A DNA stretch of 40,113 nucleotides. Origin: Anaerolineae bacterium. Lineage in GTDB: Bacteria > Chloroflexota > Anaerolineae > B4-G1. The notes below the pieces were generated by a model. It did no database searches. It was not told the DNA's origin and was given only the letters and a program-made list of their open reading frames with translations. Made by a program: the position numbers and the translations under genes. The stretch covers positions 1-40,113 of the forward strand of contig JAOAAG010000168.1 in assembly GCA_026418995.1 (NCBI GenBank), in the 5' to 3' direction. How positions within the stretch are numbered: position 1 is the first letter of the stretch; each line of letters opens with the position of its first letter. Below, one piece after another: positions 22,145 to 35,654 of this stretch.

Positions 22145-22263
22145 TTCTTATCAAGAGAGGTGGAGGGACCGGCCCTGTGAAACCTCGGCAACCGGGCGCA
22201 GGAACTTGCCCTGGCTACGGTGCCAATTCCGGCAGACCCTTTTGGGATCTGGAAGATGAGAAG
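22145..22263 (+). promoter_or_regulatory. SAM-I riboswitch (S-box leader) aptamer.
   Basis: TTCTTATCAAGAGAGGTGGAGGGACCGGCCCTGTGAAACCTCGGCAACC...GGTGCCAATTCCGGCAG...GGAAGATGAGAAG matches the conserved S-box core almost base for base: CTTATCAAGAGAGGTGGAGGGAC.GGCCC..TGAAACC.GGCAACC...GGTGCCAATTCC.GCAG...AAGATGAG. P1 is TTCTTATC / GATGAGAA. Confidence 0.92.
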
Positions 22264-22330: not shown

Positions 22331-22399
22331 GTTCCTCTTCCCCCTCCTTCCCTCAGATAAGGCCCTGACAACACCGAAAATCTCCCAGGAGGAATGTTG

Positions 22400-23581
22400 A
22401 TGACTAATCACTTCTCGACCCAGGCTGTCCACGCTGGTGAGGACAAGCGCAAGCCCTATGGTGCTCTGACGAACCCGATCTTCCAAACCTCGACCTATAC
22501 CTTCGAGAACACCGATGAAATTCTGGACTTTATGCGCAAAAAGGCGGCCAAGTCGCCGCAACTGCGGGATGAGTACGGCCGCTACAGCAACCCGACGCAA
22601 AGCGTCGTCGAGCGCAAACTGGCCGTCCTCGATCGAGGCGAGCGGGCGCTTCTGTTCGCCAGCGGCATGTGCGCCATCACTACCACGCTGCTGGCTCTGC
22701 TTACCCCTGGCGACCATCTGGTGATGACCCGGGGGTGTTACCGTCGTACTCAGGAATTCGCCCTCTCCTTCCTTAGCCGCTGGGGCGTGGAGACAACCCT
22801 GGTCTCCATCGGGGAGCCGGATGGGCTGAGTGAGGCTATCCGTCCCAATACGCGCGTGATCTTCGCCGAGACGCCGACCAACCCCTACCTGCGCGTGCCT
22901 GACCTCCCCCATATGGTAGCGCTCGCCAAACAGCAGGGCATCATAACGGTCGTGGACAGCACCTTCGCTACGCCCATCAACCTGCGCCCTATTGAGTACG
23001 GGGTTGATCTGGTAATCCACAGCGCGACCAAATATCTGGCCGGCCATAACGACCTGCTGGCGGGCGTGGTGATCGGTAGCCGGGAGCTGCTGACCCGCAT
23101 CGAGGAGCTGCGCGGCCTCCTCGGCGGGGTCGCCGGCCCCCATGATGCGTATCTGCTTCTGCGCGGCCTTAAAACGCTGGAATTACGCGTCAACCGCCAG
23201 AACGAAAACGGCATGCGTGTCGCCAGCTTCCTGGAGCAACACCCGGCCGTGAGCCGCGTCTACTACCCCGGCCTGCCCAGCCATCCCGACCACGAGGTCG
23301 CGCGACGGCTGATGTCTGGATTCGGGGGGGTGGTCAGCTTTGAGATAAACGGCGACCTGGAAAAGACCGGGCGCTTCATAGACCGTCTGCGCCTGCCCTA
23401 CATCGGCCCCACCCTCGGAGGCGTGGAGAGCATCGTTCAGCAACAGGCCATTTTCATCTCCCTTGACCCCAGGGAGCGCCGGGAAGCGGGCATCGCAGAC
23501 AACCTGGTACGGTACGCACTCGGAATCGAGAACGCCGAGGATCTGATTGCCGACCTGGAGCAGGCACTGGCGGGGATATAG
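22400..23581 (+). CDS. Cys/Met-metabolism PLP-dependent enzyme (cystathionine gamma-synthase / beta-lyase / gamma-lyase family).
   Basis: Family motifs and the PLP-lysine context are present: VDLVIHSATKYLAGHNDLLAGVV, and NPTQSVVERKLAVLDRGERALLFASGM. AGGAGG at 22387..22392 favours ATG 22400 over ATG 22394. Confidence 0.9.
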   Translation: MTNHFSTQAVHAGEDKRKPYGALTNPIFQTSTYTFENTDEILDFMRKKAAKSPQLRDEYGRYSNPTQSVVERKLAVLDRGERALLFASGMCAITTTLLALLTPGDHLVMTRGCYRRTQEFALSFLSRWGVETTLVSIGEPDGLSEAIRPNTRVIFAETPTNPYLRVPDLPHMVALAKQQGIITVVDSTFATPINLRPIEYGVDLVIHSATKYLAGHNDLLAGVVIGSRELLTRIEELRGLLGGVAGPHDAYLLLRGLKTLELRVNRQNENGMRVASFLEQHPAVSRVYYPGLPSHPDHEVARRLMSGFGGVVSFEINGDLEKTGRFIDRLRLPYIGPTLGGVESIVQQQAIFISLDPRERREAGIADNLVRYALGIENAEDLIADLEQALAGI

Positions 23582-23585
23582 CGGG

Positions 23586-24986
23586 ATGATAGTACACAAA
23601 TTCGGGGGCACCTCCGTCGGAAACGCCCAGCGCTTCTCAAGCGTGGTGGACATTCTCCTCGACCAGCGTCGCCGGAGTGGCGGCGATGCCGGGCAGGTAG
23701 TGGTCGTTTCGGCGATGAGCGGCGTGACCGACGCGCTCATCGCCGGAGCACGCGCTGCCGCCGAGGGGCGGGACACCGTCTACCGGGAGATCAAAGCTCG
23801 CCTGCTCGAAAAGCACCTCACCGTTGTGGAGACGTTGCTGAACCACAGCAGAGAGCGGGTCGAGATAGGCGGCCTGGTTGAGGACAGGTTGCACGAGCTG
23901 GAGCGGCTCTATCGCAGCATCGCCATCCTGGGCGAGCTGACCATGCGGGGCTGTGATGCAGTGGCCTCGTTTGGCGAACAGCTCTCCGCCCTCATTCTGG
24001 CCGCCGCGCTCAGGGAGCGCGACTGCCGCGCCCAGGCCATCAGCGCGACCGAGCTCATCGTCACCGATGGGCGGTTCGGGGCGGCGACGCCCCTGATGGA
24101 GCCGACACGCCAGCGGCTGCGGGAACGGATTGCGCCGCTCGTCGAGCGGGGCGTGACGCCTGTCATCACCGGATATATCGCCGCCACTGAAAAGGGCGTC
24201 ACGACCACGCTGGGACGCGGCGGGAGTGACTACTCCGCCGCCATCATCGGCGCCGGCCTGGGCGCCGACGAGGTATGGATCTGGAGCGACGTGAACGGCA
24301 TCCTCACTGCCGATCCCAATATTGTGCCCGAGGCCCGCACGCTGCGGGAACTCTCTTACGCCGAAGCCGCCAACCTGGCCTACTACGGCGCGGACGTGCT
24401 CCACCCCAGGACGATACGCCCGCTCGCCGCAAGCTCTATCCCGTTGCGTATATTGAACAGCTTCAACCCCGCCGATCCCGGCACCTTGATCGTGGCACAC
24501 CCCAGTGCCGACCGCGAGCTGATGCCAGCGCTGCTCTCAAGCACCGGGCTGAGCCTGATCGCCATCGGCAGCCAGGACGACTCCTGGACGCTCCACATGT
24601 CGGCCCGTGCCCTGCACTGCCTCAGTGAGGCCGGTGTGGATGTGCTGATGTTCTCCCAGTCCTTCTCGGAGCACAATCTGAACCTGGTGGTGCGGGAACA
24701 GGACCGGCAGCATTGCCTGAATGTGCTGCGCTCCGAGCTGAACTCCACCGGCTCGTTGCACCACGTAGAGGTTAAGGAGAATGTCGCGACGGTCTCTGTC
24801 GTGGGCGTGCCAGGGTGGAATGAGGCTGGCATCGTCCCCCACGCGTTTGCTGCGCTGGGGAGGCTGGGAACGCGGGTGATTGCCGTGGCTCAGGCCGCCA
24901 CAGAGCACAGCGTCTCGTTCTGCATCCCTGAGGAGCAGGTAGTGGACACGGTGCGCTTTCTGCACCGCGAGCTGAGGCTGGGATAA
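23586..24986 (+). CDS. Aspartate kinase with C-terminal ACT domains.
   Basis: MIVHKFGGTSVG is the canonical start. VVVSAMSGVTDAL, TTLGRGGSDYSAA, IWSDVNGILTADP and EAANLAYYGADVLHPRT are present. It starts 4 nt after the preceding gene. Confidence 0.92.
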   Translation: MIVHKFGGTSVGNAQRFSSVVDILLDQRRRSGGDAGQVVVVSAMSGVTDALIAGARAAAEGRDTVYREIKARLLEKHLTVVETLLNHSRERVEIGGLVEDRLHELERLYRSIAILGELTMRGCDAVASFGEQLSALILAAALRERDCRAQAISATELIVTDGRFGAATPLMEPTRQRLRERIAPLVERGVTPVITGYIAATEKGVTTTLGRGGSDYSAAIIGAGLGADEVWIWSDVNGILTADPNIVPEARTLRELSYAEAANLAYYGADVLHPRTIRPLAASSIPLRILNSFNPADPGTLIVAHPSADRELMPALLSSTGLSLIAIGSQDDSWTLHMSARALHCLSEAGVDVLMFSQSFSEHNLNLVVREQDRQHCLNVLRSELNSTGSLHHVEVKENVATVSVVGVPGWNEAGIVPHAFAALGRLGTRVIAVAQAATEHSVSFCIPEEQVVDTVRFLHRELRLG

Positions 24987-28360: not shown

Positions 28361-29299
28361 TTACCACAGCTCACAGCGGTAGGCGCTGGACTGGTGGTAG
28401 AGGGCCTCCACCTCCTCCCGCGAGCCGAACGCCACCCCTTCGCTTGCCGCTGCGGCAGCACCGCAGGCTACTCCCCAACGGGCTATCTCCTCCGGCGTTA
28501 ACCCTCGCAGCATCGCCCAGGCCACTCCGGCCAGCAGCGCGTCCCCCGCGCCGACGGGATTGCGAGCCTCTACCTGGGGAGGTCTAGCCCGTACAGCCCA
28601 TCCCCGGGAGGCCAGCACTAATCCCCCCGCTCCGAGCGACAGAGCGACCACCTGCACCCCCTGCTCAAGGAAGAAACGTGCCGCCGCGAGCGCATCATCA
28701 TCGTCATCTATCTCCTGCCCCGTGACTTCCTGGGCCTCGACGGCATTGGGCTTGACCAGATAGGGTCCCGCCTGACACCCCAGGAGGAGGGGTTCGCCGC
28801 TGGTATCCAGGAAGGCCTGTGCTCCTGCCTGTTGCACGGTGACAACCAGGTCGGCATAGAAAGCTGGCGGTACTCCCAGAGGCAGGCTCCCGGAGAGCAC
28901 CCATAGCTCGCCCGGACGTACCCGTCGGCGCACAAGCGCAAGTAACGCGGCCTGCTCCTCCGCACTGACTACGGGGCCGGCCTCGTTGACCTTGAGATAG
29001 CGCCCCGTGTCCTGCTCGGCGATAACGACGTTAGTGCGTGTCTCGCCTGCGATGCGCACAAAGTCGGTGGCGATGCCCAGCTCGCGCAGCCCTCGCTCCA
29101 GGAGCTCTCCCGTCGCTCCGCCAATGAAGCCCACCGCTACGCTGTCCATACCCAGCGCTTTCAGCGCCCTGGAGACGTTGAATCCCTTGCCGCCCCAATC
29201 GAGCCGCGTGGTCGTTGCCCGTATCACCTCGTGCCACACGATCCGAGGTACGATGAGTGTGCGGTCCAGCACTGGATTGGGCGTCACAGTGACAATCAT
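28361..29299 (-). CDS. PfkB-family sugar-phosphate kinase (1-phosphofructokinase / tagatose-6-phosphate kinase-like).
   Basis: MIVTVTPNPVLDRT start, GGKGFNVSRAL, and the C-terminal PfkB signature NPVGAGDALLAG. The alternative GTG start at 29311 would collide with the divergent promoter. Confidence 0.88.
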   Translation of the reverse strand: MIVTVTPNPVLDRTLIVPRIVWHEVIRATTTRLDWGGKGFNVSRALKALGMDSVAVGFIGGATGELLERGLRELGIATDFVRIAGETRTNVVIAEQDTGRYLKVNEAGPVVSAEEQAALLALVRRRVRPGELWVLSGSLPLGVPPAFYADLVVTVQQAGAQAFLDTSGEPLLLGCQAGPYLVKPNAVEAQEVTGQEIDDDDDALAAARFFLEQGVQVVALSLGAGGLVLASRGWAVRARPPQVEARNPVGAGDALLAGVAWAMLRGLTPEEIARWGVACGAAAAASEGVAFGSREEVEALYHQSSAYRCELW

Positions 29300-29316
29300 C
29301 TCACTGACCACACCGC

Positions 29317-29345
29317 TTGTTAGATATACGAAATAGGTTTATAAT
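29317..29345 (+). promoter_or_regulatory. Putative sigma-70 promoter (TTGTTA, 17 nt spacer, TATAAT) for the zinc-ribbon / Cys-Ala-tail / radical SAM operon.
   Basis: -35 at 29317..29322 and a consensus -10 at 29340..29345, in an AT-rich 125-nt divergent gap. Confidence 0.45.
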
Positions 29346-29436
29346 CCTCCAGCACACGTATTTTAGCACAAACTGGTCATAGCACTACCTTCATCGGGTC
29401 CTCGCGCACATATGCAAATTTTGAAAGGCAGCTAAT

Positions 29437-29796
29437 ATGTCCACAGGAAAAATCATAGGCTACATAATCGCGGCGATTCTTATCTTTTTCGGTGTCCTCT
29501 TTATCTGGGCGGCCTTCAGCCCGGAAGGGAAGGTGGGCTGGATATGCGTCGGGGTAATCAGTGTGGGCATTGGACTGGGCATCATCGCGCTGGTCAAGTT
29601 CCGCGAGCCGAAACCAGCCCAGCAGATTGTGCAGAAAATTGACCTCAGCGGCGATATCCAGTTGGAGACGCTGAAGTGTCAGAAGTGTGGCGGCGAACTC
29701 CAGAAGGATAGCATTACCATCAAAGAAGGGGCTGTCTTTATCTCTTGTCCCTACTGTGGCTCCTATTACCAGATGGTCGAGGAGCCGAAGTGGTAG
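29437..29796 (+). CDS. Small membrane protein with two TM helices and a C-terminal zinc ribbon (CxxC-N21-CxxC).
   Basis: TM1 is IIGYIIAAILIFFGVLFIWAAF and TM2 is WICVGVISVGIGLGIIALV. These are followed by KCQKCGGELQKDSITIKEGAVFISCPYCGSYY. The gene is visibly more AT-rich than its neighbours. Confidence 0.75.
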   Translation: MSTGKIIGYIIAAILIFFGVLFIWAAFSPEGKVGWICVGVISVGIGLGIIALVKFREPKPAQQIVQKIDLSGDIQLETLKCQKCGGELQKDSITIKEGAVFISCPYCGSYYQMVEEPKW

Positions 29797-29819
29797 CGGG
29801 CGGCTTACGGAGGCATGAG

Positions 29820-31496
29820 ATGCGCATCAAAACATGGCTGATCTGGCCACTACTTGCCCTCGCCCTGTTGGGCTTGCCGCTCTCTCTGTACGCTCAGGAC
29901 TATTCTTTCTCGCTCGACCGGGAAACAGTAGAGGTGTGGGTCCACCAGGACGGCTCCATCAGGCTGGAGTACTGGTTCACCTTTACCTGTGATCCGGGCG
30001 CGCATAGCATAGATGTGGTGGACCTGGGCCTGCCCAACGGAAATTACAACCTCTCAGACATCTATGCAGACGTGGATGGTAAGCCCATCAGCCGGGTGGA
30101 CTCCGACTATCAGGGTAAAGGAGAGTACGGAGTGGCCTTATGGCTGGGCGCTAACGAAATCCGCCCCGGCAGGTCGGGTACGGTGCATGTGGTCGTGGAA
30201 CGGGTGGGCGGGATGGTCTATGAGGACAGCCGTGATCCGGAGTATGCCAGCATCGAGTTCTCGCCTACCTGGTTTGGAAGCGAGTATGTCCACGGCACCA
30301 CCGACATGACAGTACGTTTCCACCTGCCAGCCGGTGTGCAGCCGGAGGAGCCCCGCTGGCACTCCGCGCCCTCTGGTTGGCCCGAACAGCCACAAACAGC
30401 CCTGGATGATACAGGGAGAGTGTTGTACACCTGGCATAACCCCTCCGCCAGAGCAGACCGGCAATACACCTTTGGCGCGTCGTTTCCTCGCCGTTACCTG
30501 GCCGCCGGCGCGGTGCAGACGCCGCCATCACTGCTGGAGCGGGCTGTTACTACACTTATAGGAATAATCTGCAACCCTGTCTGCTGCTTTTTTGCTGCGG
30601 TAGTGGGCATCATAGCACTATCCGCATGGGCGGGCCAGCGGCGTAAGATGCAGTACCTGCCCCCTTCGGTGAAAGTCGAGGGCGTGGGGGTCAAGAGAGG
30701 ACTTACGGCGGTGGAGGCAGCCATCCTGCTGGAAACGCCTCTCAACAAAGTGCTGACGATGATCCTCTTCGGCCTCCTGAAGAAGGGAGCGGTGGCCGTG
30801 CTCGACGACGCCCCGCTTCGGATCAGGGTGAATACGCCCATTCCCGAGGGGCTGCGGGAGTACGAAAAGGACTTCCTCGGGGCGGTGCAACCGGACGGCA
30901 CCCTCGATGAAAGCAGGCTGCGCGATATGATGACCGCCCTTATCAAATCGGTGAGCAGCAAAATCAAGGGGTTCAGCCGCCAGGAGACGGTGGCTTACTA
31001 CAGGGACATCGTCCGGCGGGCGTGGGAGCAGGTTGAGGGAGCCGAGGTACCGGAGGTGCGTGGCCGTCTCTTTGATGAGGGGCTGGAGTGGACGATGCTG
31101 GATGACCAGTTTGAAGAGCGCACTAACCGGGTATTCAGCACGGGGCCGGTCTATGTGCCGTTGTGGTGGGGTTATTACCGCCCCTGGGCAGGCGCCACTG
31201 CGACCGCGGGCGGTGGCACTGCTGTTGGTGACAGTCCCACCTTCGGCGTAACTGCCGCGCGTCCCTCGCTGCCGACGCTGCCGGGGGCTACCTTCGCCGC
31301 GACTATTGTGAAGGGGATCGAGTCCACCTCCAGCCGTATCGTCCGCAGCCTGACCGGTTTCACCGGCGCAGTCACCGCAGTGACCAATCCCCCGCCTCCG
31401 CCATCTTCCGGTGGAAGGCGCTACGGAGGCGGCGGCTGTGCCTGTGCCTGCGCCTGTGCCGGGTGCGCCTGCGCCTGCGCTGGGGGAGGAAGGTGA
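29820..31496 (+). CDS. Single-pass membrane protein, DUF2207/TIGR04222-like, with a signal peptide and a C-terminal Gly/(Cys-Ala)n tail.
   Basis: ATG 29820 has GGAGG upstream. Signal peptide is MRIKTWLIWPLLALALLGLPLSLYAQ. The ectodomain is about 240 aa (YSFSLDRETVEVWVHQDGSIRLEYWFTF...). The TM is LIGIICNPVCCFFAAVVGIIALSAWAG, followed by QRRK. The cytoplasmic segment GLTAVEAAILLETPLNKVLTMILFGLLKKGAVAVLDD recalls DUF2207/TIGR04222 proteins. The protein ends RRYGGGGCACACACAGCACACAGGGR. Confidence 0.85.
   Translation: MRIKTWLIWPLLALALLGLPLSLYAQDYSFSLDRETVEVWVHQDGSIRLEYWFTFTCDPGAHSIDVVDLGLPNGNYNLSDIYADVDGKPISRVDSDYQGKGEYGVALWLGANEIRPGRSGTVHVVVERVGGMVYEDSRDPEYASIEFSPTWFGSEYVHGTTDMTVRFHLPAGVQPEEPRWHSAPSGWPEQPQTALDDTGRVLYTWHNPSARADRQYTFGASFPRRYLAAGAVQTPPSLLERAVTTLIGIICNPVCCFFAAVVGIIALSAWAGQRRKMQYLPPSVKVEGVGVKRGLTAVEAAILLETPLNKVLTMILFGLLKKGAVAVLDDAPLRIRVNTPIPEGLREYEKDFLGAVQPDGTLDESRLRDMMTALIKSVSSKIKGFSRQETVAYYRDIVRRAWEQVEGAEVPEVRGRLFDEGLEWTMLDDQFEERTNRVFSTGPVYVPLWWGYYRPWAGATATAGGGTAVGDSPTFGVTAARPSLPTLPGATFAATIVKGIESTSSRIVRSLTGFTGAVTAVTNPPPPPSSGGRRYGGGGCACACACAGCACACAGGGR
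31437..31481 (+). repeat. In-frame TGYGCC hexanucleotide tandem repeat encoding CACACACA-G-CACACA.
   Basis: The sequence reads tgtgcc tgtgcc tgcgcc tgtgcc ggg tgcgcc tgcgcc tgcgct. Confidence 0.9.
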
Positions 31497-31500
31497 GCGG

Positions 31501-31572
31501 ATGTCGGTAGCAGCTATGGGGGGCCGCGCTTTAAAACGGGCTTCCGTTGCGGCGCGTGTTGATGCATGGTGA
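31501..31572 (+). CDS. Candidate micro-ORF (23 aa, MSVAAMGGRALKRASVAARVDAW) bridging the Cys-Ala-tail gene and the radical SAM gene.
   Basis: ATG 31501 lies 5 nt after AGGTGA (31490..31495) and 4 nt after the upstream stop. Its TGA (31570..31572) overlaps the radical SAM start (ATGGTGA). The radical SAM ATG has no Shine-Dalgarno sequence of its own. Confidence 0.25.
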   Translation: MSVAAMGGRALKRASVAARVDAW

Positions 31573-32897
31573 AACAGACCTGTTCCCAGCTTCTCTCTCC
31601 CGGTCTCCACGCCTATGAGCGGCGCGATGGGCAAGGGGGGCGTGTTCGCCTCCATCTGCGTATAGAGCCGGACGGGCGGGGTCTGCTCGTGATCAACGCC
31701 GCTCAGGTGCTCCATCTGAACCAGACCGCGGCCGTCTACACTCGCCTGGCGCTGGAAGGGTACTCCGAGGACGCAGCAGTGCGGGAGATCAGGCGCTTCT
31801 ACCGGATAGATGCCCAAACGGCCCGCGCCGATTACCGTCGCATCCGCGAGCAGATCGAAGCATGCCTCGGCCACGAGGACGGCGTCTGCCCTTTCCAGGA
31901 ATTGGAGCGGATCGAACCGTTTGCGGTGCAGCTCTCTGCCCCTTACCGGATGGACCTGGCACTGACCTACCGCTGCGACAACCATTGTCCCCACTGCTAC
32001 GTTGCCCGGCCGGGTAATTACCCGGAGATGGACACGGGTACCTGGAAGGCGGTCCTGGAACGGGTATGGGCAGCAGGTATCCCCCACGTCTGTTTCACCG
32101 GTGGCGAGGCCACGCTGCGCGATGACCTGCCAGCGCTGGTCGCGTATGCTGAAGGGCTGGGCCTGGTGACCGGGCTGTTAACCAACGGCCGCCGCCTGGC
32201 CGACATGGGCTATGTACAGGAGCTGGCCAGGGCGGGGCTGGACCACGTACAGATCACCCTGGAATCGCACGATGAGCGCGTGCACGACACGATGGTGGCG
32301 GCAGCCGGCGCCTGGCGGGAGACAGTAGAGGGCATCCGCAACGCACTCGCAGCCGGTCTTTACACCACCACCAACACTACACTGACCCGGATAAACGTGG
32401 ACACCATCGCCGGGACGGTGGCCTTCGTTGCCTCGCTGGGGGTGCCCACCTTTGCCTGCAACAGCCTGATCTATGCCGGCAGAGGGGCTGCTGTCGGCAC
32501 CGGCTTCCAGGAGGGAGAGCTGGTCCCCATTCTGGAGCAGGTGCGGGAGGCCTGCGACCGCTACTCCCTGCGCCTGATATGGTACACCCCGACCCAGTAC
32601 TGCGCGCTTTCGCCGCTGCAACTGGAGCTGGGTGTGAAGGCCTGTACCGCCGCGCTCTACAATATGTGCATTGAGCCTGACGGGGCGGTTATCCCCTGCC
32701 AGAGCTACTATGAGCCGCTAGGTCACATCCTGCACGACCCCTGGGAGAAGATATGGAACCACGAGCTGGCCCGTGCGCTGCGCGAGCGGCGCTACGTGCC
32801 GGATAAGTGCCGTACATGCGCGGAGCTGCCTCTGTGTGGGGGCGGATGTCCGCTCTATCTGACACATCTCGCAATAGCGGAAATCAAAGGAGCATAG
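31566..32897 (+). CDS. Radical SAM/SPASM-domain protein with an N-terminal PqqD-like RiPP recognition element (peptide/protein maturase).
   Basis: CDNHCPHC (CxxxCxxC) at 31974..31997, and FTGGEATL. SPASM cysteines are CTAALYNMCIEPDGAVIPC and CRTCAELPLCGGGC (C-x2-C-x5-C-x3-C, 32808..32849). The N-terminal segment is GLLVINAAQVLHLNQTAAVYTRLALEGYSEDAAVREIRRFYRIDAQTARADYRRIREQI. An in-frame TGA sits immediately upstream of ATG 31566. Confidence 0.92.
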   Translation: MVKQTCSQLLSPGLHAYERRDGQGGRVRLHLRIEPDGRGLLVINAAQVLHLNQTAAVYTRLALEGYSEDAAVREIRRFYRIDAQTARADYRRIREQIEACLGHEDGVCPFQELERIEPFAVQLSAPYRMDLALTYRCDNHCPHCYVARPGNYPEMDTGTWKAVLERVWAAGIPHVCFTGGEATLRDDLPALVAYAEGLGLVTGLLTNGRRLADMGYVQELARAGLDHVQITLESHDERVHDTMVAAAGAWRETVEGIRNALAAGLYTTTNTTLTRINVDTIAGTVAFVASLGVPTFACNSLIYAGRGAAVGTGFQEGELVPILEQVREACDRYSLRLIWYTPTQYCALSPLQLELGVKACTAALYNMCIEPDGAVIPCQSYYEPLGHILHDPWEKIWNHELARALRERRYVPDKCRTCAELPLCGGGCPLYLTHLAIAEIKGA

Positions 32898-32899
32898 CC

Positions 32900-33685
32900 G
32901 TGGGATGGGATAGCCGTACTCGCATCGTGCGTGTGGAGATAGAGGGCAGCTCCAGGTGGGGGCTGGTTGAAGGGGACATGGTTTACGAGCTGCACGGTGA
33001 GGTATTCGGTGGATACAGGCGTGGGGGGGAGCTGGGGCCTCTGGAAGCCATGCGTCTACTGCCACCAAGCATACCTACCAAGATTATCTGTGTGGGCCTG
33101 AATTACCGCGCCCACGCCGAGGAAAGCCATATGCCCATACCTCCAGAGCCGCTGCTCTTTTTCAAGCCGCCCAGCAGCCTGATTGGGGCAGGCGAGTACA
33201 TACTTTTGCCTCCCCAGTCGGAGCGGGTGGATTATGAGGCGGAGCTGGCGGTGGTGATGGGCCGGCGCTGCCGCAACGTATCTCCGCAGGAGGCATGGCA
33301 TTACGTGCTGGGTGTGACCTGCGGCAACGATGTCACCGCCCGTGACCTCCAGCGGCGCGACAACCAGTGGACCCGTGCCAAGGGGTTCGACACCTTTTGC
33401 CCACTCGGCCCATGGCTGGTCTGTGGAGTAGACGAGACAGACGTAGCCGACCTGGAAGTGATATGCAGAGTCAACGGTCAGGTGCGCCAGCGCGGACGCA
33501 CCACCGATATGGTCTTCTCCCCGGCCCAGTTGATTGCCTATGTGGCAAGCATTATGACTCTTGAGCCAGGGGATGTCATTATGACAGGGACACCTGCCGG
33601 TGTAGGGCCCCTGGCACCGGGCGACCTGGTCGAGGTGGGGGTGGAAACCATCGGGGTGCTACGCAACCCGGTGAGGGCTGCGTAG
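32900..33685 (+). CDS. Fumarylacetoacetate hydrolase (FAH) family protein.
   Basis: GTG 32900 with AAAGGAG upstream, 2 nt after the radical SAM stop. Family motifs are KIICVGLNYRAHAEE, DYEAELAVVMG, GVTCGNDVTARDLQ, KGFDTFCPLGPW and PGDVIMTGTPAGVGPL. Confidence 0.88.
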   Translation: MGWDSRTRIVRVEIEGSSRWGLVEGDMVYELHGEVFGGYRRGGELGPLEAMRLLPPSIPTKIICVGLNYRAHAEESHMPIPPEPLLFFKPPSSLIGAGEYILLPPQSERVDYEAELAVVMGRRCRNVSPQEAWHYVLGVTCGNDVTARDLQRRDNQWTRAKGFDTFCPLGPWLVCGVDETDVADLEVICRVNGQVRQRGRTTDMVFSPAQLIAYVASIMTLEPGDVIMTGTPAGVGPLAPGDLVEVGVETIGVLRNPVRAA

Positions 33686-33689
33686 CATC

Positions 33690-34937
33690 CTAATGCTTAA
33701 AGCTGCGCTGGCCGGTAAAGACCATCGTCGCGCCCGCTTCGTTACAGGCCTGGATCACCTGGTAGTCATTGAGTGAGCCTCCAGGCTGGATGACGGCCGT
33801 GACCCCCTCGCGCAGCCCGACGTCCACCCCGTCCCGGAAGGGGAAGAACCCGTCCGAGACCATCACCGCGCCGATCAGCCCGCCGTGTTGGGCCTCGACC
33901 TCTTCACGTATCTCCCGCCGCCGCCCCTCGTCCTCTAACGCCGAGTAGATGACCCCGTACCGCTCGTAGGCCAGACGGTCGGCCATCTTGCGGTAGGCCT
34001 TATCCCTGGCGATCTCGGCCACCCCGACGCGGTCCTGCTCGCCAGTGCCGATGCCGACCGTGACCAGGTCCTTGACATAGATGACCGAGTTGGAAGTCAC
34101 CCCGGCCTCGACCATCCAGCCAAACAGCATGTCCTCGTATTCCCTGTCGGTCGGCTCGCGTGCGATCCGGTACACGACGCCGTTGTGGACGGCCTCGGCT
34201 AGCATCAGATCGGCCTTGGTGCGCGTCTGTGGCACGTAGGACAGTTGGGCGATAATCGAGCCGTCAATGAGGCTTTTGAAGTCCACGAAGCGTTCCGTGG
34301 CGAACTCGGCGAGGCGTTTGATGTTGTCAATGCGCATGATACGCAGGTTCTTGCGTCTACCAAGGATACTGAGCGTGCCCTCCTCAAACTCGGGCGCCAC
34401 CACGACCTCAGCGTAACGTTCTGAGATGGCCTCCGCCGTGGGAACATCCACCGGCCGGTTGAGGGCGATACAGCCGCCGAAGGCCGCCACATGGTCGGCC
34501 AGGTCGGCTTTGAGATACGCCTCCAGGATGGTATCGGCAACGGCTACACCGGAGGGGTTGTTGTGCTTCATGATCGCCGCCGCCGGCCGCTCGGTCAGAT
34601 AGCGCAGAATGTTGAGCGCATTGTCCGCGTCGGTCAGGTTGATCTTGCCGGGGTGCTTGCCGAACTGGAGCAGCTCCGCATCGGAGACCAGGTAACGCCC
34701 CGGCGCGATGGTCTTGACCTCGCCTAAGACCAGGTTGCCGTTAATCAGGCGATACAGCGCAGCCTCTTGGCCGGGATTTTCGCCGTAGCGCAGCCCCTTG
34801 CGCACACCGTCAATGACCCAGGAGACTTTCTCGTAGACAAGCGTGGTACGCCCCTCGTCGGAGATGAAGGATATTTCCATCCGTTCCGGGAAGTGGTCGT
34901 CCATAATGGTGTGATAGGCTCGTTTGAGGTCCGACAT
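33690..34937 (-). CDS. purH: AICAR formyltransferase (C-terminal PurH domain) encoded as a separate polypeptide.
   Basis: LRYGENPGQEAALY, MKHNNPSGVAV and VIQPGGSLNDYQVIQACNEAGATMVFTGQRSFKH are AICARFT hallmarks. ATG 34937 is preceded by TAAGGAG. Confidence 0.88.
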   Translation of the reverse strand: MSDLKRAYHTIMDDHFPERMEISFISDEGRTTLVYEKVSWVIDGVRKGLRYGENPGQEAALYRLINGNLVLGEVKTIAPGRYLVSDAELLQFGKHPGKINLTDADNALNILRYLTERPAAAIMKHNNPSGVAVADTILEAYLKADLADHVAAFGGCIALNRPVDVPTAEAISERYAEVVVAPEFEEGTLSILGRRKNLRIMRIDNIKRLAEFATERFVDFKSLIDGSIIAQLSYVPQTRTKADLMLAEAVHNGVVYRIAREPTDREYEDMLFGWMVEAGVTSNSVIYVKDLVTVGIGTGEQDRVGVAEIARDKAYRKMADRLAYERYGVIYSALEDEGRRREIREEVEAQHGGLIGAVMVSDGFFPFRDGVDVGLREGVTAVIQPGGSLNDYQVIQACNEAGATMVFTGQRSFKH

Positions 34938-34949
34938 AGCCCTGACTCC

Positions 34950-35654
34950 TTATCCTTGGGATACATTACCGGCATCCATGAAGGTGTAGATACTCGCCAG
35001 CTCGGCCCGATGGCGGGTGGCCAGGAACGAACTGATCGCCGCATCGTATCGGGCGGTGAGCGCGAAAGCTTTGCATGCCAGCTCAAAACGCTTTTCCAGG
35101 CTGAGCTTCCCCTCGTGAGCGCGGGGGAAGGCCAGCAGCTCAGGATAATCGGCCGGGTCCACGACCGGGGCCACGCGCAGGTAGTTCTTCGCTGCGGCGC
35201 GGATCATACTCGGCCCCCCGATGTCTATATTCGCCCGCGCCTCCTCGACCGTTGTCCCGGCACGGGCCACGGTGGCCTCGAACGGGTAGAGATTGCACAC
35301 CACCATGTCAAATGGCACGGCCCCGGTGCGGGCTAGATCCGCCCGGTGGGCCTCGTTGTAGGTTTCGCTCAGCAGGCCAAGGTAAATCTTGAAATCCAGC
35401 GTCTTGACCAGTCCCCCCTGCATTTCCGGCTGTCCGGTATACTCCGAGACCTGAGTCAAATAGCGGGGGGTCTTTTCCGGTCCCAGGATGGCGGTAATGG
35501 CGTTGTAACTGCCGCCCGTAGAGTAAAAATGTACCTCAGGGTTGATCTCAATAAGTCCCGCGATCAGCCCCTCCAGCCCGGCCTTATCCGATACGCTGAC
35601 CAGGACCCTTTGCACCTTCACCCAATTATCTATCTGGCGCACGATATTGACCAC
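34950..35654 (-). CDS. purH: IMP cyclohydrolase (N-terminal MGS-like PurH domain) encoded as a separate polypeptide.
   Basis: RVLVSVSDKAGLEGL, STGGS, PEMQGGLVKTLDFKIYLGLL, FDMVVCNLYPFE, IDIGGPSMIRAAAKN. GTG start has GAAGGAGGG upstream. Confidence 0.88.
   Translation of the reverse strand: MVNIVRQIDNWVKVQRVLVSVSDKAGLEGLIAGLIEINPEVHFYSTGGSYNAITAILGPEKTPRYLTQVSEYTGQPEMQGGLVKTLDFKIYLGLLSETYNEAHRADLARTGAVPFDMVVCNLYPFEATVARAGTTVEEARANIDIGGPSMIRAAAKNYLRVAPVVDPADYPELLAFPRAHEGKLSLEKRFELACKAFALTARYDAAISSFLATRHRAELASIYTFMDAGNVSQG

Follow-up and report, generated by a model that had tools for sequence, protein, structure and literature searches.

A locus encoding a membrane protein with a Cys-Ala tail and a radical SAM/SPASM enzyme

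We analyzed a stretch of 40,113 nucleotides from an Anaerolineae bacterium (Chloroflexota; GenBank assembly GCA_026418995.1, contig JAOAAG010000168.1), called here the window, and focused on a plus-strand locus that, judging from its homologues, appears to contain a functional unit of three genes. The first gene (29437-29796) encodes a zinc-ribbon membrane protein of 119 amino acids, recognized from its open reading frame (ORF), weak zinc-ribbon matches, and two hydrophobic segments. The second (29820-31496) encodes a protein of 558 amino acids, characterized from its ORF, an AlphaFold2 model, and hydropathy, and named here the tail protein after its C-terminus, GGGGCACACACAGCACACAGGGR, which had been read in the original prediction and was confirmed in the translation of the window. 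The third (31566-32897) encodes an enzyme of 443 amino acids in which Pfam and NCBIfam matches, an alignment, and a model place a probable recognition element (RRE) of the type found with ribosomally synthesized and post-translationally modified peptides (RiPPs) next to a radical S-adenosylmethionine (SAM) core and a SPASM domain. The enzyme and the tail protein are linked nearly without exception, in both search directions, across the Chloroflexota and into the Archaea, and the sequence data point to an undescribed protein modification system.

Domain content of the enzyme

The enzyme matches the Radical_SAM (PF04055, 2.8e-24) and SPASM (PF13186, 1.7e-10) models. Radical SAM proteins carry a CxxxCxxC cluster motif and a SAM-binding GGE motif in a partial TIM barrel, and the seven-cysteine signature of SPASM domains holds two auxiliary 4Fe-4S clusters. 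Its CxxxCxxC motif, formed by C137, C141, and C144 (31974-31997), and the sequence FTGGEATLR are both invariant in 24 homologues, and the SPASM cysteines C346, C360, C368, C378, C415, C418, C424, and C428 (32601-32849) are likewise all invariant. The motifs claimed in the original prediction were therefore confirmed, with eight invariant cysteines in the SPASM signature. At the N-terminus, an RRE-like domain covers approximately residues 13 to 101 (31602-31868) and folds as four strands followed by three helices in an AlphaFold2 model of moderate confidence (pLDDT, the predicted local distance difference test, of 61.6). For comparison, a PqqD-type RRE is a winged-helix domain of ~90 residues with three strands and three helices. 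When the first 125 residues were searched, PqqD (PF05402) matched the window enzyme with an E-value of 0.0035 and 18.1 bits, under the cut-off of 23.4 bits, while it matched 23 of the 24 aligned homologues at E below 0.01 (best 4e-8). Considering the whole alignment, this domain is very likely homologous to PqqD, and the PqqD-like domain proposed earlier stands on its homologues, but the match of the window protein itself is weak.

The nearest solved structures by sequence were SkfB and PqqE (1.1e-20 each), and those by fold were SkfB, PqqE, SuiB, and CteB, as found by Foldseek with the model of pLDDT 61.6, which we use as support only. These four are the nearest characterized enzymes, and all of them modify peptides. 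We also compared whole-protein scores with curated NCBIfam cut-offs for the best 25 of 57 matches. Results showed PqqE on top with 120.7 bits against a cut-off of 381, and none of these 25 came near its cut-off; the maturase equivalogs compared were PqqE, SkfB, StsB, MftC, ACGX, GeoRSP, ScmE/F, HxsC, WgkB, SbtM, NirJ, and AhbC/D. A distant rSAM1-type homologue from locus L058 likewise came near none of its curated cut-offs. As no such cut-off was passed, the enzyme is not a member of any described maturase family, and it does not fall within a characterized clade.

The list of weak matches includes NirJ2, AhbD, and AhbC, and the structure of GDGT-MAS is among the PDB matches of the enzyme. These matches would fit a non-peptide substrate, either a membrane lipid, as for tetraether synthases, or a tetrapyrrole, that the membrane proteins would only organize at the membrane, and the hosts of the module, Chloroflexota and Thermoprotei/Aigarchaeota archaea, are compatible with it. 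However, all of these scores fall far short of their cut-offs and extend over no more than the shared radical SAM core, and a PqqD-type domain is kept both in the enzyme and in a pseudo-radical-SAM paralogue presented below, which points to a peptide ligand. We thus regard a non-peptide substrate as highly improbable.

Architecture of the tail protein

For the tail protein, an AlphaFold2 model based on 55 homologues reached a mean pLDDT of 85. It places a predicted extracytoplasmic beta-sandwich (amino acids 30 to 223) after a signal peptide (1 to 25), and hydropathy locates one transmembrane segment at amino acids 241 to 273 (30540-30638), followed by QRRK. Beyond the membrane, the model contains a well-folded winged-helix and helical domain (282 to 455), a disordered linker, two helices (489 to 522), and finally a disordered Gly/Ser stretch carrying the Cys-Ala tail. 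The signal peptide, the single transmembrane segment, the QRRK on its inner side, and the cytoplasmic C-terminal half had been predicted from the sequence, and both the model and hydropathy agree with them. The C-terminal half of the protein, including the Cys-Ala tail, should face the cytoplasm, and this predicted topology would put the tail within reach of the enzyme.

No Pfam or NCBIfam model matched the tail protein of the window at E up to 0.01. Among the 55 homologues, TIGR04222 matched 8 (best 1.3e-8), DUF2207_C matched 5, and DUF2207 matched 3, all taken by E-value and not against curated cut-offs, and one archaeal relative bears the NCBI name "DUF2207 domain-containing protein". The architecture agrees with the layout of DUF2207/TIGR04222 proteins, the superfamily of the models PF09972, PF20990, and TIGR04222, with an extracytoplasmic domain, a transmembrane segment, a cytoplasmic domain, and a low-complexity C-terminal tail. 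The protein therefore looks like a remote relative of the DUF2207/TIGR04222 superfamily and not a member by score; the earlier description "DUF2207-like" is right only as a remote relationship, as the window protein is unmatched and few of the 55 homologues match. A functional paper on DUF2207 describes a stress-tolerance phenotype in S. mutans.

By sequence, no homologue of the tail protein was found among solved structures. By fold, the best Foldseek match was ribophorin I/Ost1 of the eukaryotic oligosaccharyltransferase (E 1e-8, up to 470 aligned columns, TM-score about 0.24), and N-terminal domains of M1 aminopeptidases were also found; with TM-scores near 0.24, this is a resemblance at the level of the fold only. 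The length of the alignments suggests that ribophorin I/Ost1 and the tail protein share a similar succession of domains, from a beta-sandwich ectodomain through a transmembrane helix to a helical domain in the cytosol. We also noticed that a subset of homologues matches only residues ~250-558 of the query, corresponding to the transmembrane and cytoplasmic part, yet carries the Cys-Ala tail, suggesting that these proteins have a different ectodomain.

Upstream of the tail, homologue alignment revealed a conserved segment at amino acids 484 to 528 (31269-31403), LPTLPGATFAA...FTGAVTAVTNPPPPP, with the consensus PGxxFAxxxVxxxExxSxxxVxxxxxFTxxVTxxTNPxP conserved in bacterial members. This segment is a candidate leader-like recognition element for the RRE of the enzyme.

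The C-terminus of the zinc-ribbon protein

The zinc-ribbon protein has two N-terminal transmembrane helices and a predicted cytoplasmic CxxC...CPYC zinc ribbon (the zinc-ribbon matches being weak), and its C-terminus, Q-x-x-EEPKW, is nearly invariant. The EEPKW motif lies at 29779-29793, and an ending of this type was found in 63 of 66 aligned ORFs, including those of the distant loci L084 (with an archaeal-type tail) and L085. EEPKW may serve for docking, or it may be a further substrate candidate besides the Cys-Ala tail.

Taken further, this end could be the substrate, or a second substrate, of the enzyme, for example through a Lys-Trp cross-link, with the tail protein acting as scaffold or partner. 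Such a role would agree with the nearly invariant motif and with its predicted cytoplasmic location. Lys-Trp cross-linking is an established radical SAM/SPASM chemistry (streptide/SuiB), WgkB is among the weak NCBIfam matches, and the two RRE-bearing proteins encoded in most genomes, the enzyme and the pseudo-enzyme, could match two C-terminal peptides. On the other hand, a motif of five residues straight after a folded zinc ribbon would be an unusual core peptide, the WgkB model gives 73 bits against a cut-off of 650, and the Cys-rich tail is both a more typical SPASM substrate and more strongly conserved. We consider this possibility quite unlikely.

The Cys-Ala tail is the most conserved part of the protein

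The C-terminal motif CACACACAGCACACAGGGR occupies amino acids 540 to 558 (31437-31493), contains 7 cysteines, and is, on homologue alignments, the proposed substrate or functional site. It is the most conserved part of the tail protein, down to ~30% identity and reaching the Archaea. Among the 120 closest homologues (55-100% identity), 119 end in CACACA(CA)GCACACAGG(G/S)R, and the lone exception is a partial sequence. The tail was also kept in 121 of 150 representatives of 50%-identity clusters, down to ~30% identity, the remainder being mostly fragments or frameshifted sequences. In an alignment of 55 sequences, down to 28% identity, the Cys, Ala, and Gly of the tail account for 9 of the 19 columns that are invariant over the full length of the protein.

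Variants of the tail comprise CACACAGCACACACAGGGR and a three-block form, C(A/V)CAC(A/V)S-CAC(A/V)CACVS-CACACA(S/G)GGAG. The latter occurs in the clusters P0355, P0377, P0340, and P0387 with their relatives and at locus L084, and for 3 of the 4 clusters, by the readable source names of their members, it comes from metagenome-assembled genomes (MAGs) of Thermoprotei, Aigarchaeota, and Thermofilum.

At the DNA level, 76 loci encoding the identical 17 residues CACACAGCACACAGGGR had 76 distinct sequences, in which every synonymous codon and all three stop codons were used. An identical peptide with saturated synonymous sites means that selection acts on the peptide, residue by residue; on these alignments, the Cys-Ala tail appears to be under residue-exact purifying selection. 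Drift of a microsatellite or low-complexity stretch at the DNA level was ruled out, as the synonymous codons are saturated while the peptide is unchanged.

Tandem duplicates of the tail protein were found at six loci (L042, L052, L062, L113, L160, and L085), the second copy being tailed wherever its end lies on the contig (both copies keep the tail in L042, L052, L062, L160, and L085), and a single enzyme gene was present in the five of these loci where the enzyme position lies on the contig. Short peptides bearing the Cys-Ala tail were not found. The single candidate, a 73-codon stop-to-stop stretch on the 1.1-kb contig L156, lacks a start codon and seems to be a fragment left by the assembly.

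A tail of this composition might also work without being modified, as a metal or iron-sulfur site of the metallothionein type with all its thiols on one face of a short hairpin, the substrate of the enzyme lying elsewhere in the complex. C-x-C is the densest metal-binding spacing of metallothioneins, and the predicted disorder of the tail in the AlphaFold2 model fits an apo metal site. Bufferin systems and the proposed TIGR04222 systems are also metal-related (PMC12452194). However, invariance extends to Ala, Gly, and the terminal GGGR, exceeding the usual demands of metal binding, and the near-obligate adjacency to an RRE-bearing peptide maturase would be left unexplained. Therefore, we judge a metal-only tail to be unlikely.

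The enzyme and the tail protein are linked from both search directions

We scanned one genome per GTDB species for relatives of the enzyme. Such a relative is encoded in at least 591 species genomes, and the best 80 loci of these were kept, of which 76 could be evaluated. Almost all of the 80 carry a Chloroflexota label (Anaerolineae, Caldilineae, Thermoflexia, Bellilinea, Brevefilum, Ca. Aquidulcis). Results showed the tail motif in 71 of the 76 evaluable loci, on the same strand as the enzyme; nine of the 80 had no tail, 4 of them at contig edges and 5 as true exceptions. The zinc-ribbon gene was found upstream of the tail protein in 61 of the 80.

In the reverse direction, 80 metagenome loci were chosen solely by a degenerate DNA pattern of the tail and were considered evaluable when at least 1.5 kb of downstream flank was available. 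The enzyme was present in 51 of 52 evaluable loci; in 42 of these its gene is on the same strand as the tail and starts no more than 400 nt downstream. The zinc-ribbon gene was present in 37 of the 38 loci evaluable for it. Scoring the neighborhoods of enzyme homologues, as proposed with the original prediction, thus found linkage to proteins with Cys-rich tails beyond this genome, and the association of genes and motif is real and far beyond chance.

By ORF clustering over the 80 genome loci and the window, we obtained, besides antisense artefacts, three widely conserved families, one of which held three different proteins. The widely conserved neighbors are the radical SAM enzyme, a pseudo-paralogue of it, a methyltransferase, and the zinc-ribbon protein, while other flanking genes differ. 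Two distant loci, whose tail proteins are ~30% identical to that of the window, illustrate the variation in gene order between unrelated flanks: zinc ribbon-tail-enzyme in L084 and zinc ribbon-enzyme-tail-second tail-methyltransferase in L085. Close relatives of the tail form of L084 come from Thermoprotei, Aigarchaeota, and Thermofilum MAGs.

Beside the cassette, both L084 (11109-12635) and L085 (4532-6258) carry a gene for an SPFH/Band_7 protein with C-terminal zinc ribbons, plus a homologous partner of 173-178 amino acids. A search for these SPFH/Band_7 neighbors in the window and in the Chloroflexota loci found none.

Neither a conserved small precursor ORF nor a conserved protease or exporter/transporter family was found in the 80 genome loci and the window. 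These results bear on whether the tail could be the core of a released RiPP, for which the remaining ~540 residues would serve as a giant leader or scaffold and from which the modified peptide would be cleaved and exported. C-terminal cores on large carriers are known, for example in borosins, and the succession of upstream conserved segment, Gly/Ser spacer, and core resembles a leader-core layout. Nonetheless, no conserved protease or exporter appeared in ~160 loci (the tail-selected ones checked for known partners only), the enzyme keeps 70-87% identity across many genera together with an invariant core, unlike fast-evolving antibiotic RiPPs, and the predicted location of the tail, which is part of a membrane-anchored protein, is the cytoplasm. 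We find a released peptide very unlikely.

Pseudo-enzyme and methyltransferase join the module in most loci

Most loci carry a pseudo-radical-SAM paralogue of 385-410 amino acids that keeps the PqqD-like domain and the sequence FTGGEPTLR. As none of the three radical SAM cysteines and none of the SPASM cysteines is left, we consider it a pseudo-enzyme. A class I SAM methyltransferase of ~255 amino acids is also carried by most loci. Across 81 loci (80 genome loci and the window), both extra genes were present in 34, the pseudo-enzyme only in 15, and the methyltransferase only in 11; where no enzyme ORF was classified, one locus had the pseudo-enzyme with the methyltransferase and one the pseudo-enzyme alone. 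Examples of the pair are L003:3197-4516 with L003:4774-5628, and L031:9352-10506 with L031:10517-11281. By tblastn, neither gene was found in the 40-kb window, which explains why both were missed in the first reading.

In addition, the C-terminus of the enzyme is extended in one subclade by a sequence of the type …LC(V/I/L)(E/D)SxS(N/T) (L015, L016, L018, L020, L021, L022, L024, L028, L058, L064, L080, L084, and L085). In several loci of this subclade the methyltransferase gene comes directly after that of the enzyme, and a pseudo-enzyme was found in none of them, a hint that extension and pseudo-enzyme might be interchangeable.

The micro-ORF and the FAH gene are not conserved members

Five plus-strand ORFs lie at the locus between two minus-strand genes, with spacings of 23, 4, -7, and 2 nt, and our ORF calls reproduced this layout exactly as it had been described. 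Besides the three genes of the putative functional unit, they comprise a micro-ORF of 23 amino acids (31501-31572), known from the ORF call, and a gene of the FAH family with a GTG start (32900-33685), recognized by its match to PF01557.

The original prediction had taken all five as one maturation system, with the micro-ORF as a possible precursor and the FAH enzyme included. Their tight packing on one strand is in line with this, as is the FAH gene after the enzyme in the closest relatives as well. On the contrary, the enzyme starts only 5-25 nt past the stop of the tail protein in relatives (L081, L002, L005, and L010), leaving no room for a micro-ORF, and tblastn with the micro-peptide gave chance matches only. 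The micro-ORF was therefore rejected as precursor and as member of the system, and with no counterpart in relatives it appears to be a chance ORF. The fifth ORF does belong to the FAH family (PF01557, 260 bits, plus an Rv2993c-like N-terminal domain), but it is not a conserved neighbor of the module: it adjoins the enzyme only where the latter is at least 82% identical, namely in L081-L083 (82% enzyme identity) and L135 (83%), is gone at 77% identity (L128), and is absent from 80/80 genome and 79/80 metagenome loci. On these grounds it was ruled out as a member of the system, although a lineage-specific role is possible. A discrete functional unit of five genes did not hold up, and one maturation system of all five ORFs is extremely unlikely; of the gene set first proposed, the zinc-ribbon protein, the tail protein, and the enzyme stand, while the micro-ORF and FAH gene drop out and the pseudo-enzyme and methyltransferase have to be added.

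Promoter and flanking genes in the window

A sigma-70-like promoter candidate, TTGTTA-17-TATAAT, is present on the plus strand at 29317-29345, 92 nt upstream of the first gene, and agrees with the consensus at 10 of 12 positions. However, a promoter scan of the region observed 3 such sites against 1.4 expected from shuffles, so that the promoter claimed at this position is real as a sequence but weak as evidence. An Rfam E-value scan of the 5' leader (29250-29500) found no riboswitch or other RNA element.

The minus-strand neighbors of the locus are a PfkB kinase gene on the left (28361-29311) and, on the right, the AICAR-transformylase part of purH (33690-34937). purH is cut in frame by a TAA stop at 34937-34952 (minus strand) into two ORFs, the other of which encodes the MGS/IMP-cyclohydrolase part (34950-35654). 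The junction, …CAAGGATAAGGAGTCAGGGCTATG…, provides a Shine-Dalgarno-like AAGGAG plus an ATG, and the split looks like a true two-gene arrangement and not a sequencing error. Elsewhere in the window, a SAM riboswitch (RF00162, 91 bits, E 1e-20) was found on the plus strand at 22145-22262, upstream of an ORF at 22394-23581 that is followed by an aspartokinase gene (23547-24986).

Proposed mechanism and its weighing

Considering the linkage, conservation, domain content, and predicted topology described above, we infer that the tail is the substrate and propose how it may be recognized and modified, the chemistry itself not being deducible from sequence. With a probability of about 55%, the enzyme modifies the cytoplasmic Cys-Ala tail of the tail protein.

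After insertion of the tail protein into the membrane, its beta-sandwich would face the outside and its C-terminal half the cytoplasm. The PqqD-like element of the enzyme would then dock on the FTxxVTxxTNPxP segment upstream of the tail (candidate recognition peptide FTGAVTAVTNPPP), and 5'-deoxyadenosyl radical chemistry, together with auxiliary SPASM clusters, would modify the alternating Cys and Ala residues. The most likely products would be intramolecular thioether cross-links of the sactionine or ranthionine type, favored here because they are the commonest outcome for such an architecture with Cys-rich substrates and because SkfB and CteB are among the closest structures; another transformation of the cysteines is possible. 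Presumably, the product would stay in place on the membrane protein, forming a cap that is cross-linked or binds metal, with no release of a small peptide, and the zinc-ribbon protein would be the membrane partner of the complex. In most other genomes, the pseudo-radical-SAM paralogue and the class I methyltransferase join the module, while in the lineage of the window they are not adjacent.

Several observations weigh against modification of the tail by this enzyme. Five well-flanked enzyme loci have no tail protein nearby (L008, L018, L020, L064, and L080), and one tail locus (L126) has no enzyme within 5 kb. The PqqD match of the window enzyme is under the Pfam threshold, and its best scores, to PqqE, NirJ2, and AhbD, are so far below the cut-offs that they leave peptide and tetrapyrrole substrates undistinguished. 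The enzyme could reach the EEPKW end of the zinc-ribbon protein, another candidate substrate, just as easily. As in metallothioneins, a tail rich in C-x-C can bind metals without being modified. Moreover, the pseudo-enzyme and methyltransferase are missing from the window; this copy may therefore work differently or incompletely.

A bolder proposal, which we put forward only tentatively and would rather doubt than defend, is that of an ancient module shared by Bacteria and Archaea in which the enzyme, mostly with its dead paralogue and the methyltransferase, turns the invariant (Cys-Ala)n C-terminus of the single-pass membrane protein into a protein-borne structure by undescribed chemistry. 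Such a structure might be, for example, a ladder of cross-links or a novel cofactor that binds a metal or a cluster.

Comparison with known systems

The closest precedent comes from work on MNIO (DUF692) enzymes, in which, among Cys-containing proteins that lack a signal peptide and whose genes lie upstream of an MNIO gene, ~40% are TIGR04222 membrane proteins whose C-terminal tails are rich in Ser/Gly and interspersed with Cys (PMC12452194, Microb Genom 2025). Subsets of these TIGR04222 proteins were proposed there, without experiment, as MNIO substrates (PMC12452194). Both cases concern large membrane proteins, remotely related to each other, in which a low-complexity Gly/Ser region at the C-terminus ends in Cys; the gene adjoins one for a RiPP-type Cys-modifying enzyme, and the proposed substrate is a real protein, not a small peptide. 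The partner enzyme is radical SAM/SPASM here and MNIO there, and a residue-exact (Cys-Ala)n tail contrasts with scattered cysteines. Moreover, linkage is near-obligate in our system, whereas about a third of TIGR04222 genomes have no MNIO gene, and the tail is predicted to be cytoplasmic here and periplasmic there, in hosts that are Chloroflexota and Archaea here and mainly Actinomycetota there. DUF692 was not among the conserved neighbors in the 80 enzyme-selected loci and the window (the tail-selected loci were checked for known partners only). By these comparisons, the present system would be a parallel case to MNIO-TIGR04222 in a remote branch of the same superfamily. Literature searches on the tail motif, on DUF2207 with radical SAM, and on Chloroflexi, SPASM, and Cys-Ala found no description of the system; the novelty claimed at the outset holds to that extent, but the concept was preceded by the MNIO-TIGR04222 proposal (PMC12452194).

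The SkfB, CteB/SCIFF, and StsB maturases share with our enzyme the N-terminal recognition domain, the radical SAM core, and the SPASM domain, and they act on Cys-rich substrates; among solved structures, SkfB is its top match by sequence and fold, and the fold search also retrieved CteB. Unlike these sacti- and ranthipeptide maturases, the enzyme scores only 86.9 bits against 300 for SkfB and 70.6 against 625 for StsB, its candidate substrate is the end of a 558-amino-acid membrane protein instead of a peptide of 40-60 amino acids, and no conserved protease or exporter accompanies it. We know of no alternating Cys-Ala spacing among the sactipeptide and ranthipeptide classes.

QhpD, acting on the QhpC subunit, and the anaerobic sulfatase-maturating enzyme are SPASM-type enzymes that act on Cys of proteins retaining the modification. 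The Cys-Ala tail has no C-x-(P/A)-x-R motif as in sulfatases, neither the QhpD nor the sulfatase maturase model was among the best 25 of 57 NCBIfam matches, and the target here is a membrane protein of unassigned function. PqqE/PqqD gives the best NCBIfam score and has a PqqD-type domain in common with the enzyme, but 120.7 bits is far below the cut-off of 381, the recognition domain is fused to the enzyme here, and there is no PqqA-like peptide, pqqB, or pqqC. The haloarchaeal pseudo-SAM/SPASM family TIGR04347, which is among the top weak matches, recalls the paralogue without radical SAM cysteines found in most genomes; scores of 62-127 bits are nevertheless far from its cut-off of 525, and our pseudo-enzyme, which is not in the window, has also lost all SPASM cysteines. 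A classical RiPP cluster would differ as well by its short precursor, protease, and transporter, none of which is conserved here.

To our knowledge, nearly every radical SAM/SPASM enzyme described with a recognition element makes a small peptide product. The kind of maturase is already known; what is unusual here is the conserved membrane-protein target, the Cys-Ala motif, and the range over Bacteria and Archaea.

Implications for the protein families

The candidate substrate is short (19 residues), invariant, and readily synthesized, and the hypothesis is therefore directly testable. If true, it would extend the chemistry of RRE-bearing radical SAM/SPASM enzymes to real proteins, at the tail of a large and widely conserved membrane protein, and would give a testable function to a family present in at least ~590 species genomes, plus Thermoprotei and Aigarchaeota. 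Should the tail become a cofactor, this would represent a new class of protein-derived cofactor or post-translational modification at the cytoplasmic face of the membrane and a first clue to the function of the large DUF2207/TIGR04222 superfamily, whose C-terminal tails are enigmatic. In combination with the MNIO-TIGR04222 proposal, our results suggest as a general rule that the Gly/Ser/Cys-rich tails of DUF2207/TIGR04222 proteins may be maturation sites, served by unrelated enzyme families in different phyla.

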